Notes under the pieces: model-generated
Databases searched by the model: none
What the model was told of the DNA's origin: nothing
Seen by the model: the letters and a program-made list of their open reading frames with translations, nothing else
Assembly (NCBI GenBank): GCA_963760525.1
Contig: CAVXDT010000003.1
Coordinates: forward strand, 18,448-82,447
DNA length: 64,000 nt
Source: Nitrososphaeria archaeon
GTDB lineage: Archaea > Thermoproteota > Nitrososphaeria > JACIWG01
Direction of reading: 5' to 3'
In this document: piece by piece, positions 30,634 through 61,888 of the stretch
Position numbering within the stretch: the first letter of the stretch is position 1
How the letters are laid out: every line of letters begins with the position of its first letter
Position numbers and translations under genes: made by a program

Positions 30634-32022
30634 CTATTGATTTTTTGGAATAATCATCGCTTCACCTGAATATTCTGGATACTCTAGTTTTGCTGGTGTC
30701 AAAGGCTTATAATCTTCTCCCAAGACTTCTTTGCGTTTTTTGAATTCATTCCAAGATTCTTTTATTATCTCTGGTTTATTTAATAAATCAACTGTAGTGC
30801 ATGCTAAGGTTTTTGCTGCTAAGATCATACCTTTGTAGCCGATGCTTGTGTTAGACATTTTTGCCGTGTCTAAACTATGGAAAGCTGCTCCTGATGGAAA
30901 TGTACCAATCCATAAGGTTCCATTTGTCGGAACTATCCAACTTACATCGCCGACATCTGTCGAACCTGTTTCTCCTATCCAATCTTCTCCAATTTCCCAT
31001 CCTTTAGTCGGAAGTATCTCCTCAGGGAACTTCTCGTACACTTTGGAAAGTTGAGTTCTGACGAATTCCCTTTCATCATCTGTCAGCTTGATGGAGCCAA
31101 GCATTTTGAGATTTTCGTCAACGATTAATGACAGGGTTTTATTAGGCAATATGAGATAACATCCAATATTTCTTTCGATTTTGCAGGTTGTACCTGTAGC
31201 TAAACTGGCTGCGATACTGCATAAGTCAACTCTTCTGGAAAGTTCCATAAGACGATTCATGTCAGGAGAACGTACAAAAACCCATACTTCAGAATAATCC
31301 GGTACTATGTTTGGGGCTTCTCCTCCACTTTTTATCACATAATGTATTCTCTCAGTCTGTCTCATGTGTTCTCTCATGAACTCTATTCCTAGATTGAGAA
31401 GCTGTGCGGCGTCTAGGGCACTTTTTCCCTCCCAAGGTATTGAACCAGCATGCGCTGCTTTGCCATAGAATCTGTACGTTTTGTTGTCTAAACCGTTGAA
31501 GCTATCATAAGCTGAGGTTGTTTTGTCGCCTGGATGCCATTGTAGGGCGACATCAAGGTCATCGAATAGGCCTTTTGCTGCCATGACAACCTTGCCATAT
31601 AGGGTTTCTTCAGCAGGACATCCGTATACTCTGATTTCTCCCTTGACGTTATGTTTTTGCATTGTGTTTTTTGTCGCTAATGCTGCTGCAACGAATGATG
31701 TTCCTAAAAGGTTATGGCCACAACCGTGTCCTGGACTGCCTTTTTGCGTGGTTGAAAGTCCAGGTAATGCATCGTATTCAGCTAGGTAGCCGATTGTAGG
31801 TCTGCCATTTTCCCAACTTGCTACGAAAGCAGTTGGAAGGCCTGCTACTCCAATTTGGACTTTGAACCCTTCCCGTTCTAGAACATCAGCTAGGAGTTTT
31901 GAAGATCGGTGCTCGTTTAAGGCTACTTCAGCATATTCCCAAATGGTTCTAGACACATTAATCAGCCAATCTTTCTTATTATCAATATATTCTGTGACTT
32001 CCTCTTTCAATTCAAGAGCCAT
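30634..32022 (-). CDS. M20-family amidohydrolase (AbgB / aminobenzoyl-glutamate utilization protein B-like)
   Basis: 462 aa with the metal-binding motif GHGCGHNLLG and an M20D-like layout with an inserted dimerisation domain. Confidence 0.7.
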   Translation of the reverse strand: MALELKEEVTEYIDNKKDWLINVSRTIWEYAEVALNEHRSSKLLADVLEREGFKVQIGVAGLPTAFVASWENGRPTIGYLAEYDALPGLSTTQKGSPGHGCGHNLLGTSFVAAALATKNTMQKHNVKGEIRVYGCPAEETLYGKVVMAAKGLFDDLDVALQWHPGDKTTSAYDSFNGLDNKTYRFYGKAAHAGSIPWEGKSALDAAQLLNLGIEFMREHMRQTERIHYVIKSGGEAPNIVPDYSEVWVFVRSPDMNRLMELSRRVDLCSIAASLATGTTCKIERNIGCYLILPNKTLSLIVDENLKMLGSIKLTDDEREFVRTQLSKVYEKFPEEILPTKGWEIGEDWIGETGSTDVGDVSWIVPTNGTLWIGTFPSGAAFHSLDTAKMSNTSIGYKGMILAAKTLACTTVDLLNKPEIIKESWNEFKKRKEVLGEDYKPLTPAKLEYPEYSGEAMIIPKNQ

Positions 32023-56830: not shown

Positions 56831-57208
56831 TGGCGACTTTCCAGTCAGGCCTAAAGTAGGTACATATACGGTGATGAAACTGATTCTTGTCAGTGGATGG
56901 GTTTTAGCCGAGTATTTTCCAATAATATGCCAAATTGTATCTAGATTAGATAACTATTTTGAATATTTCTGTGGATACTTAGTTGAAATGACCTAATTGA
57001 CTCGCATTTCTATTCCGAATATCTTCAATCTTAGTCTTGGCTCGATTCTTTGAGAGAAATATTATTACATACGTGTTAGATATGTCCTATGCTTACATAG
57101 AGATATCCAAAATGTTTAAATAAAATGCATATCTGTCGGAAATCGAATAAAGCAAGGAAGCTTTCTTCTTCCCAAGGATCATCTCCGGGAAAAATCAGAA
57201 TCCTGAAA

Positions 57209-57218
57209 GAGGTGATCC
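57209..57218 (+). promoter_or_regulatory. Extended Shine-Dalgarno sequence (GAGGTGATCC) ahead of rtcB
   Basis: This 10-nt stretch is complementary to the conserved 16S rRNA 3' end (...GGAUCACCUC). The ATG at 57222 follows 3 nt later. Confidence 0.5.
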
Positions 57219-57221
57219 AAG

Positions 57222-58726
57222 ATGGCAAGATATGCACCTGTAAAAATATCAGAAGTGGAATATGAAATTCCTAAATCAGCTAAAGAGGGGATGCGTGTCC
57301 CGGTCCGAATATATGCAAATCATCAATTACTGCAAAAGATGACTGAAGATAGAACTATAGAGCAAGCAATAAATGTAGCTCATTTGCCTGGAATACAGAA
57401 GTTTTCTATTGTCCTCCCCGATGGCCACGAATAGAGCTTAAACTCTCGTGAGGGCTATGGTTTTCCAATTGGGGGGGTTGCAGCAACAAACTATGATAAC
57501 GGAGTCGTCTCTCCTGGGGGTGTCGGCTATGACATTAAGGAAGTCGAGAGCCTTAAAGCTTTCACTTTCGTGTAAACTGCGGAGTTCGCATTATCCGCAC
57601 CGATCTCTCGGTAAGCGATGTTCGTCCGAAGCTTAAAGAGCTAGTGCACAGGCTGTCAATAGAAGTTCCAAGTGGCTTAGGTAGTAAAGGTCAGGTTAGA
57701 CTAAGTTCCAGTGGCCTAGATGATGTACTGAATGAGGGTGTTGACTGGGCTGTAACAAATGGATATGGTTTTTCAGAGGATATAGAATTCTGTGAAGAGA
57801 ATGGGCATATGAAGTCAGCTGATGCTAGTGCGGTCAGTCCTATGGCAAGGCAGCGTGGAGCTCCACAAGTAGGCACTTTAGGCAGTGGGAACCATTTCTT
57901 GGAAATAGGTGTTGTTGACAGAATATTCAACGAGAATGCTGCGAAAGCTTTCGGTATCGTTGGCGCTGGTCAGATTATGTTGTGGGTTCATACTGGCAGC
58001 CGTGGTCTAGGACATCAGGTTTGTAGCGATTATCTTAGAGTAATGGAACAGGCTTCCCGCCATTACAATATTGTGTTGCCTGATCGTGAGCTTGCCAGCG
58101 TTCCCGTCCAAAGTAATGAGGGTGAAAGATATCTACGTGCCATGGCCGCTGCTGCGAATTTTGCTTGGGCTAACCGTCAGATGATTACTCATTGGATGCG
58201 TAGAGCATTTTCAAAAACCTTTAGCGTAGATGAAAGGGAATTGAAACTAGTATATGACGTTGCTCATAATATTGCTAAGGTTGAAGAACATGATATTGAC
58301 GGAAAAAAGATGAAGGTTGTTGTTCATCGCAAGGGTGCTACTAGGGCATTCCCTAAAGGTAAGAACGAGGTTCCTCTAAAGTACCGCGATCTTGGCCAAC
58401 CTGTTCTTATCCCCGGTTCCATGGGTACATCAAGTTGGGTCTTGTTAGGTAATGAACTGTCGATGCAGAAGAGTTTTGGTAGTACTGCTCATGGTGCAGG
58501 TCGTATGATGAGTCGCGCTGGTGCTCTCAGAGCAAAAAGTGGCTTTGAGGTTAAGAGAGACCTAGAGCATCGCGGCATATTATTGGAAGCTGCTGACATC
58601 AAAGTCGTAAGCGAGGAAGCTCCTGAAGCGTACAAGGACGTTGACATGGTTGCTGAAGTGTCTGATAATGTTGGTATTGCAACTAAAGTCGCTAGGATTG
58701 TTCCCATAGGTGTGGTCAAAGGTTAA
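57222..58726 (+). CDS. rtcB: RNA-splicing ligase RtcB, encoded in three exons (57222..57431, 57453..57537, 57576..58726). The spliced product is 481 aa.
   Basis: The three consecutive ORFs carry RtcB sequence in colinear order. Exon 1 ends ...SIVLPDGHE. Exon 2 encodes [28 protein letters not shown]. Exon 3 continues NCGVRIIRT...GSGNHFLE...[11 protein letters not shown]...[10 protein letters not shown]...HRKGATRA...GSTAHGAGR... Removing 21 nt and 38 nt restores one continuous frame. Confidence 0.85.
57432..57452 (+). other. BHB (bulge-helix-bulge) intron 1 in rtcB, 21 nt
   Basis: Outer helix AUGGC (57421-25) pairs with GCUAU (57454-58). The central 4-bp helix is CACG (57426-29) with CGUG (57447-50). 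The 3-nt bulges are AAU (57430-32) and AGG (57451-53). The inner helix is AGAG/CUCU with loop CUUAAA. Cutting after the 2nd bulge nucleotide on each strand removes exactly 57432-57452, whose first codon is the in-frame TAG. Confidence 0.75.
57538..57575 (+). other. BHB-type intron 2 in rtcB, 38 nt (relaxed form with a weak outer helix)
   Basis: The central 4-bp helix is ACAU (57532-35) with GUGU (57570-73). The 3-nt bulges are UAA (57536-38) and AAA (57574-76). The inner helix is 6+6 bp, GGAAGU(C)GAGAGC with GCUUUCACUUUC, with loop CUUAAA. Cutting after the 2nd bulge nucleotide removes 57538-57575 and yields GAC AUU AAC UGC, which is D-I-N-C. Confidence 0.7.
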
Positions 58727-60859: not shown

Positions 60860-61888
60860 CTATGAATTGTTTTTAAGTCCTTTGTTGACCTCTATTCTTC
60901 CATCTTTTATCACAAATTTGATATTGTCTCTATCTTGAATGGTTTTTATGTCTTCAAGGGGGTTGCCCTTGACTGCTATCAGGTCCGCTGCCTTTCCCCC
61001 TTCAAGTGTTCCAGTTTTATGTAAAAGGTTGCATGCCTCAGCTGCGTTTTTTGTGGCTGCGATTATAGCTTCCAAAGGAGTAAAATTGCATTTCTCAACA
61101 AGTAGTTGAAGTTCCATTGCGTTTAATCCATACTTGAGCATTGGTGTGCCTGTGAAGTCGGTTCCAGCTGCTATCTTCACACCATACTTCTTAGCTATTG
61201 CTAAGTTTTTAACGTGAATATCAACCACTTTTTGTGCTTTTTCAAGTCCCCATTCGGGTGTACCTGCTTCTCTTCCTTCTTTGACTATTTGGTGGACTAT
61301 TGACAGAGTAGGTGTAAGTATTGTGTCATTTGTCTTCATCATTTTAGCTCCTTCCTCGTCTAAAAATATCCCATGTTCAATAGTTCTTACTCCTCCTATC
61401 AGGGCGTTTTTTATTCCTTGAGTGCCTTGAGCATGAGAAGCAACATATGTTCTTACCTTTCTAGCCTCATTTACTATCGCGGTGATTTCTTCTATTGTGA
61501 ACTGTTCATCTTCAGGTTTATCCCTTTCAGACATGACTCCTCCGGTAGTAAAAATCTTAATGAAGTCCGCTCCTTCTCTAAGCGTCGATCTAGCACCTCT
61601 AATGCATTCATCGACACCGTCACATATCAAGTCTCCGAAACCAAATTTGAATTTGCTTCTTTCTTTCACTATTTGCAGTGGAAAATAGTGCTCATCTCCA
61701 TGCCCAAAAGTTTGTGAAAGTGCTCTGTGTGCTGTGAGAATTCTGGGACCTCCCACGTATCCCTGCTGCATAGCTGTTCTTAACGGTACTCCATTTAAGC
61801 TAGACATATCCCTTACTGTTGTGAAGCCTGATTCTAATAGTTGTTCGATGTCTTTAGCTGCTTTAAGAAGTAGTAACTGAATTATGGA
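60860..61888 (-). pseudogene. Truncated metal-dependent amidohydrolase (imidazolonepropionase/Xaa-Pro-dipeptidase-like superfamily). The N-terminal beta-sandwich and HxH metal motif are missing.
   Basis: The frame is open back to 61888 and reads SIIQLLLLKAAKDIEQLLESGFTTVRD-MSSLNG..., with no start codon before the ATG at 61807. GFTTVRD normally follows the HxH motif by about 40-60 residues. Only about 40 nt separate the end of the frame from the divergent lon-like gene. Confidence 0.55.

Follow-up and report, generated by a model that had tools for sequence, protein, structure and literature searches.

The gene rtcB, which encodes the RNA ligase RtcB, is interrupted twice in an uncultured archaeon of the Nitrososphaeria, and the locus raises the question of what the two inserts are, how old each of them is and whether they are related to each other. 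The gene (57222-58726, + strand) lies in a stretch of 64,000 nucleotides of contig CAVXDT010000003.1 (assembly GCA_963760525.1), referred to here as the window, to which the coordinates of rtcB refer. An earlier note on this DNA had read both inserts as introns carrying the same hairpin and had suggested that they are related or mobile. The closest public relatives of the source organism are metagenome-assembled genomes from Danish soils and SPRUCE peat. The genome searched comprises 1.22 Mb in 15 contigs (those cited are C3, C10, C12 and C14) with 41.6% G+C and is 68% complete. Compared genomes are designated by G-numbers (G000 being the source genome), compared loci or contigs by L-numbers.

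Structure of the rtcB gene and its inserts

The rtcB gene is encoded in three pieces, separated by inserts of 21 nt (57432-57452, termed intron 1) and 38 nt (57538-57575, intron 2). Exon 1 (57222-57431, M1 to E70) is followed by exon 2 (57453-57537, 85 nt), which according to the spliced translation contributes 28 residues and the first base of an Asn codon, and by exon 3 (57576-58726), which supplies the last two bases of this codon and continues from C100 to the stop codon; all three are on the + strand. Deletion of both inserts results in a single RtcB frame of 481 amino acids, which aligns with RtcB of Pyrococcus horikoshii (1UC2, residues 7-481) without gaps over both junctions (E = 5.7e-193). 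Read unspliced, the gene ends at the TAG with which intron 1 begins, and an unspliced message would give rise to a 70-aa fragment only.

Judged by sequence and predicted structure, both inserts are genuine archaeal bulge-helix-bulge (BHB) introns of the rtcB pre-mRNA. Intron 1 (TAGAGCTTAAACTCTCGTGAG, + strand) has the canonical hBHBh' form in full, with two 3-nt bulges on opposite strands (AAU, 57430-32, and AGG, 57451-53) on either side of a central helix of 4 bp, formed by CACG (57426-29) and CGUG (57447-50). It is flanked by an outer helix of 5 bp (AUGGC, 57421-25, with GCUAU, 57454-58) and by the inner hairpin AGAG-CUUAAA-CUCU with an inner helix of 4 bp (in the DNA AGAG, 57433-36, CTTAAA, 57437-42, and CTCT, 57443-46). 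Cuts two nt into each bulge release exactly 57432-57452 and leave the joined sequence CAC GAA|GGC. The intron is inserted after E70 in the motif PDGHE|GYGFPIGG, ahead of GYG, and its removal restores HE|GY as found in intron-less relatives. The BHB registers of both introns were assigned by hand from the sequence, and the folds miss complete central helices; for intron 1, the minimum-energy fold recovered the outer helix and the inner hairpin and missed the full 4-bp central helix. Among the 14 assemblies of the window's clade, variation in intron 1 is too small for compensatory changes to be examined.

Intron 2 (+ strand) has the BHB in a relaxed form (HBh'), as judged from sequence, fold and covariation. 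The central helix of 4 bp is formed by ACAU (57532-35) and GUGU (57570-73), the bulges are UAA (57536-38) and AAA (57574-76), and the outer helix consists of one G-C pair only (57531/57577). The inner stem is built in two tiers of 6 bp each, GGAAGU/ACUUUC (GGAAGT/ACTTTC in the DNA) and, atop of it, GAGAGC/GCUUUC with the cap CUUAAA (in the DNA GAGAGC, 57546-51, CTTAAA, 57552-57, and GCTTTC, 57558-63); the z-score of the hairpin is -3.0. Its insertion splits the Asn codon of GYDI-N-CG behind the first base, with the codons that match D95 and C98 of the Pyrococcus enzyme on either side, and both splice junctions of the gene correspond to the sequence of intron-less relatives. In an alignment of intron 2 which includes the metagenome contig L074, 96.5% of the cells are paired, compared to 32-53% in slid controls. 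Three pairs are compensatory, with both sides changed, one of them in the central helix, where the change in the exon is synonymous; the structure of intron 2 is hence conserved by compensatory change. The hairpins, cores, coordinates and lengths (21 versus 38 nt) given in the earlier note were confirmed by sequence and folding, and its remark that both introns sit in the most conserved coding segments applies to the RtcB motifs PDGHE|GYG and GYDI-N-CG.

The interrupted gene is not confined to a single assembly. The identical 70-aa open reading frame (ORF) of exon 1, ending at TAG, recurs in independent JGI, ENA and Logan assemblies, on at least 22 contigs, each with the three-piece gene. In eight of these contigs the spliced coding sequence (CDS) is intact at 481 aa and differs from that of the window by about 61 synonymous and about 22 non-synonymous codon changes, a ratio which indicates purifying selection on the exons across the eight strains. 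That the inserts are something other than introns, the gene being a pseudogene, an assembly artefact or the object of a recoding bypass (stop read-through plus frameshift), is hardly credible: a single rtcB copy was found, in a genome 68% complete, which would suit such a reading, but the same inserts recur in the independent assemblies, the exons are under purifying selection with the spliced frame intact in all strains, the BHB geometry is exact and accompanied by compensatory changes, and translation through the inserts would place extra residues within the metal-binding motif.

Excision at the bulges restores an intact RtcB sequence, and the genes for a splicing endonuclease and a ligase cofactor are present in the same genome: an EndA domain is encoded at C14:166788-167042 (76 bits) and archease at C10:61241-61654 on the + strand (118 bits). 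EndA would cut two nt into each 3-nt bulge, and RtcB, aided by archease, would ligate the exons. Since RtcB would thereby join its own exons, the formation of new ligase would need existing ligase, and the two introns appear to place an obligatory self-dependence in an RNA ligase gene. The archease gene (61241-61654, +) and a tRNA gene with an intron (complement 61049-61161) are arranged head to head within C10:61049-61654, both belonging to the splicing pathway.

Distribution, relative age and exchange of the introns

A match to rtcB was found in 36 other Nitrososphaeria genomes; none of these genes is broken, and 34 match at full length. Three short RtcB ORFs encountered in the comparison were rejected as candidates for interrupted genes: P0007 and P0011, from other lineages, are due to a 1-nt frameshift and a deletion of about 22 nt, respectively, and P0218 is ended by the end of its contig. 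Both rtcB introns are absent from all genomes of the same family that were examined (G001-G004, G006 and G007). In G002, G003, G004 and G006, rtcB reads through at both intron sites. In G001 and G007 (loci L006:2647-4146, - strand, and L007), an intein of about 400-500 aa separates N from C in GYDIN|CG, its insertion point lying 2 nt downstream of the site of intron 2, in agreement with the earlier view that the introns follow the insertion pattern known for inteins.

Intron 1 was found in 14 of 14 clade assemblies and is absent from L074, the RtcB protein of which is 85% identical. Intron 2 is present in the window's own clade, in L046 and in L074, and the contigs L047, L048 and L049 have neither intron. 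Intron 2 is evidently older or more widespread than intron 1, because it is shared with a lineage only 85% identical in protein and its helices have been kept by compensatory changes. Intron 1, the distribution of which is limited to the window's own clade, was gained more recently. Both rtcB introns, together with a tRNA-Glu intron at position 37/38 described below, have the distribution of recent lineage-specific gains. The divergent copy of intron 2 in L046 was given little weight, as it lies in the first 35 nt of the contig, where the exon bases would alter conserved residues. This contig starts 7 nt before intron 2 and shows seven differences from its close relatives in L046:1-35, being identical thereafter, which could result from an assembler break at a strain variant or from errors at the contig end.

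The sequence next to intron 2 points to exchange between lineages. L074, which has intron 2, and L047, which lacks it, share 90% identity across 815 nt of their spliced CDS, but only 52% in spliced positions 301-400. This tract (57581-57680, + strand) starts 5 nt past the intron site. Within it, L074 follows the allele of the window's own clade at 28 of 35 informative sites, compared to 32 of 178 elsewhere (Fisher P = 2.4e-12). One tract haplotype is common to the intron 2-bearing alleles, which are 73-76% alike, a value equal to their divergence across the gene, and another is common to the intron-less alleles (73-81% alike); between the haplotypes, identity is 52-61%. Since the tract haplotype follows the presence or absence of the intron, these data support recombination at the DNA level, in which lineages exchanged presence and absence of intron 2 and about 100 nt of the 3' exon were co-converted. 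A co-inherited flanking exon tract of this kind, here the 100 nt directly 3' of intron 2, is known from homing-type elements. Weighing against this history is the polytomy obtained in protein and DNA trees, in which L074 may or may not be sister to the window's clade; the exchange may have been a gain in L074 or a loss in L047. The mobility proposed in the earlier note stands in so far as intron 2 appears to have been exchanged with its recombined tract and both introns are missing from the same-family genomes.

A second indication concerns both introns. The window and a sister lineage (L086/L088) are about 93% identical over 5 kb, and a segment spanning both introns (57140-57610, + strand) diverges by about 2%, compared to about 7% in its flanks. 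From exon 1 to intron 2, 8 of 354 positions differ, versus 82 of 1151 in exon 3 (binomial P = 4e-5), and no difference at all was found at 57302-57476. The segment may represent a recent exchange of the intron-bearing region.

Inteins and homing introns, such as the RtcB intein at the catalytic Cys in G001 and G007, resemble the rtcB introns in occupying the most conserved codons, and the tract linked to intron 2 resembles their co-conversion. They differ in that no endonuclease ORF is found in or beside the rtcB introns: the neighbouring genes code for a HAD hydrolase and a glycosyltransferase, not for a homing endonuclease, and the introns themselves contain no ORF. Splicing would furthermore be carried out by EndA and RtcB of the host and not autocatalytically. 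With an older, covarying intron, a younger, clade-limited one and sister alleles with and without an intron next to a bounded recombined tract, a single gene offers a dated series, and gain and loss of BHB introns are therefore directly testable by population genomics.

The CUUAAA loop and the likeness of the introns

The earlier note had taken the CUUAAA loop shared by both introns as a sign that one arose from the other or both from a common family. Among the 14 near-identical clade assemblies, the loop of intron 1 is CTTAAA in 13 and CCTAAA in one, and that of intron 2 is CTTAAA in four, including the window, CTTAAG in nine and CTTGAA in one, which leaves exact identity between both introns in 4 of 14 assemblies. 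Elsewhere, the loop of intron 2 is TATCAG in L074 and CTGAAG in L046, the latter at the contig end and of little trust. Because the stems covary while the loops drift, the loops are clearly unconstrained as far as the strains compared can tell, and CUUAAA identity is a strain-level state, neither a functional mark nor a family mark, and unfit as a signature in searches for relatives. The comparison of introns across strains which the note had asked for gave conserved stems, but not a conserved loop. The purine-rich GAG(A)G arm, also said to be common to both introns, is shared only with an offset of 1 nt, and in the register of the loop 0 of 4 arm positions match.

It has also to be considered that the CUUAAA hairpin is a selected functional module, for instance a protein-binding or regulatory one, kept or convergent in both introns. 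The same loop in both introns of the window, the related YUUAAR loops in the tRNA-Glu intron and a mild genome-wide enrichment of CTTAAA hairpins with stems of at least 4 bp (29 versus 17.6 expected) would fit this view. The loops, however, vary freely in near-identical strains and are wholly replaced in L074 while the stems covary, and an Rfam search gave no match, which makes a selected module very unlikely. We know of no case in which EndA, which recognizes the BHB, reads an intron loop.

For a random pair of hairpins with 4 bp and 6 nt from the genome, the probability of the same loop is 3.4e-4, and that of a loop within one mismatch of CTTAAA is 7.5e-3. The best local alignment of the two introns, though, does not place loop on loop. 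Intron 1 aligns ungapped with the 3' half of intron 2 (TAGAGCTTAAACTCTCGTG versus TAAAGCTTTCACTTTCGTG), with 15 of 19 positions identical. The score of 22 was reached by none of 319 BHB-shaped genomic decoys (Gumbel P = 3.7e-4, shuffle P = 6e-4), and comparison with other strain variants gave P = 1.6e-3 to 4.4e-3.

Several observations count against a common origin. When the 3' part of intron 1 is fixed in the null model, as CGUG is forced by the pairing with the exon, P rises to 0.004-0.02; a null of purine-rich arms gives 0.03-0.09, and the hairpin alone 0.013-0.24. High scores are obtained with two alignments that exclude each other, one placing loop on loop and the other aligning intron 1 with the 3' half of intron 2, so that low-complexity AG/CU composition is a possible cause. 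Intron 1 is furthermore without similarity to intron 2 of L074 (score 8). The outcome of the chance test proposed in the earlier note hence depends on the null model, from 3.4e-4 for the same loop up to 0.24 for the hairpin alone. Its suggestion that one intron arose from the other, or both from a common family, is favoured by the decoys (P of about 0.0004-0.004) and gains no more than marginal significance under the more conservative nulls (0.004-0.24). Kinship of intron 1 and intron 2 is accordingly plausible but unproven on the sequences compared, with the chances about equal.

A third intron enters this comparison. The tRNA-Glu(CUC) gene on C12 (complement 31117-31226) contains a canonical 37/38 intron of 32 nt, A GUC UU AGAGC-UUUAAG-GCUCU G GAC AGGG AA. 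Compared with the majority variant of intron 2, it is identical at 17 of 20 positions (score 26, reached by none of 280 decoys; Gumbel P = 7.5e-4), and with intron 1 it gives a score of 21 (P about 1e-3). This intron is absent from six genomes of the family (G001-G004, G006 and G007) and from the synteny-matched contigs L125 and L127, and a sister strain carries it with differences at 3 of its 32 bases. A neighbouring protein gave access to strain variants of this intron; in the loci L124-L128, ARAGORN found no tRNA, and tRNA-Glu was located by its T-arm motif. To be set against the match are the P values of 0.06-0.46 obtained with the other strain variants of intron 2 and the fact that several introns were compared, and the hairpin match to the rtcB introns appears suggestive only. 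The spread between RNA classes envisaged in the earlier note gains a candidate in the similar tRNA-Glu intron, the support for which varies with the strain variant from P = 7.5e-4 to 0.46. In several relatives (L102 of G002, L106 of G003, L125 and L127), tRNA-Glu(CUC) has no 37/38 intron and contains an insert of 16-21 nt in the region of the D-loop; if this is an intron, its position would be non-canonical.

A further canonical BHB intron of 26 nt (AGGCTTAGGATAAACTAGCCCGAATT) is located in the EF-2 gene (G000:C14, about 151,640-151,670, + strand), just before the P-loop AHVDHGKT. With a central helix UUCG/CGAA and the loop GATAAA, it is unlike the rtcB introns (scores of 10-12). The introns that resemble one another, rtcB introns 1 and 2 and that of tRNA-Glu, are precisely the three that are lineage-specific.

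The rtcB introns may nevertheless be real, unrelated and independently acquired, their likeness being due to chance among short AT-rich hairpins with purine-rich arms; this is a serious alternative, to which we give somewhat less than an even chance. The exact loop match in some strains would then have arisen through one G-to-A change by drift in the intron 2 loop. The loop is indeed polymorphic, and since the outgroup loops of intron 2 (CTGAAG and TATCAG) end in G, the final A in the window looks derived. The conservative nulls (P = 0.03-0.24) and the choice of the comparison after the fact fit this alternative as well, as do matches of equal quality which occur by chance in coding DNA when the whole genome is searched (C3:182514, 14/15; C10:23189, 27/31) and, in a class-wide search, a 16-mer at promoter-like sites of another family. 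It is opposed by decoy and shuffle P values of 4e-4 to 4e-3 in all three strain pairs, by the coincidence of mutual similarity with lineage specificity and by the dissimilarity of the older EF-2 intron.

Given the likeness of intron 1 to intron 2, and of the two to the lineage-specific intron of tRNA-Glu(CUC), the most economical reading would be kinship, with existing intron sequence re-used as new BHB introns arose, in the manner proposed for transposed tRNA introns of Thermoproteales. Taken together with BHB introns of different age, the exchange of intron 2 and free loops, this kinship gives the best joint explanation of the locus, which in its entirety we regard as an even bet. A more far-reaching model, tentative and rather improbable as a whole, would see a small family of BHB mini-introns currently mobile in this genus. 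Copies would be seeded from existing introns between tRNA-Glu(CUC) and rtcB (at site 2, then at site 1), targets would be set by 4-nt pairing of the 3' end of the intron with the exon, spread and erasure would proceed by homing-like gene conversion at an intein hot spot, and ligase synthesis would depend on inherited ligase.

Related systems and genome-wide searches

Few introns of archaeal protein genes are known to be spliced by an endonuclease. In the searchable literature, BHB introns of mRNA are limited to cbf5 and the 5'-UTR (untranslated region) of Haloferax HVO_1309 (PMC7714728), and the rtcB introns would add to them. The intron in the cbf5 pre-mRNA of Crenarchaeota (Watanabe 2002; Yokobori 2009, PMC2738675) is likewise a tRNA-type BHB intron in the CDS of an RNA-processing enzyme, presumably cut by EndA and joined by tRNA ligase, with gains and losses. 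In the present case, the host gene is that of the ligase itself, the phylum differs (Nitrososphaeria), and two introns of 21 and 38 nt are found only 85 nt apart, both in active-site motifs. Transposition of tRNA introns was proposed for Thermoproteales (Fujishima et al. 2010, as summarised in PMC4090602). According to this summary, lineage-specific BHB introns which are alike occur there at different sites and genes, and the need for a BHB may define the targets, as could be the case here. The present case differs from it in that tRNA and mRNA are involved, with three candidates only and a short likeness (15/19 to 17/20) of borderline statistical significance, and exchange between lineages by recombination is indicated only for intron 2. 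In HAC1/XBP1 splicing, too, a non-spliceosomal endonuclease cleaves an mRNA at paired stem-loops, and a tRNA ligase, which in metazoa is RtcB, reseals it; that endonuclease is IRE1, not EndA, and the reaction belongs to a regulated stress response.

Apart from the similar lineage-specific hairpin in tRNA-Glu, the search for further copies suggested in the earlier note yielded none in cbf5, endA or other BHB contexts. Both cbf5 and endA are uninterrupted in this genome, and relaxed-BHB similarity screens and pattern scans of the 1.22-Mb assembly (68% complete) revealed no further BHB-embedded copy; the remaining matches beyond the three introns are coding or promoter DNA. When the whole genome was scanned for BHBs, whether scored strictly or in an energy-like manner, the hits were about as numerous as in the reversed-genome control (e.g. 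16503 versus 16485), which means that structure alone is unable to inventory introns. Relaxed BHB hits screened for likeness to the three introns were also as numerous in the control, and ORF-joining screens overlooked short exons and were overwhelmed by false positives, whether or not codon usage was scored.

Three sequence matches were rejected. At C10:23189, the sequence that matches the tRNA-Glu intron at 27 of 31 positions encodes the C-terminus of an aminopeptidase C-like protein. The match at C3:182514 (GAGTTTAAACTC, 14 of 15 positions identical to intron 1) is SecE-like coding sequence on the other strand. In the same region (G000:C3, about 182,540-182,620, - strand), the SecE/Sec61-gamma-like gene shows an apparent frame change between MSSDTNGPERFTTVDEEY and RLRLTKKTTFEEFKLYLK, which may be explained by an assembly error of 1 nt, by a frameshift or by another small insert. 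The third, AGAGCCTTAAAGCTTT in genomes of family f7, was rejected as a conserved promoter-like site. This exact 16-mer of the upper hairpin of intron 2 occurs in L114, L117 and L118 (f7) at a homologous intergenic site at about position 1501, approximately 20 nt upstream of a divergent gene start, and on the other strand (AAAGCTTTAAGG) resembles a BRE/TATA promoter element.

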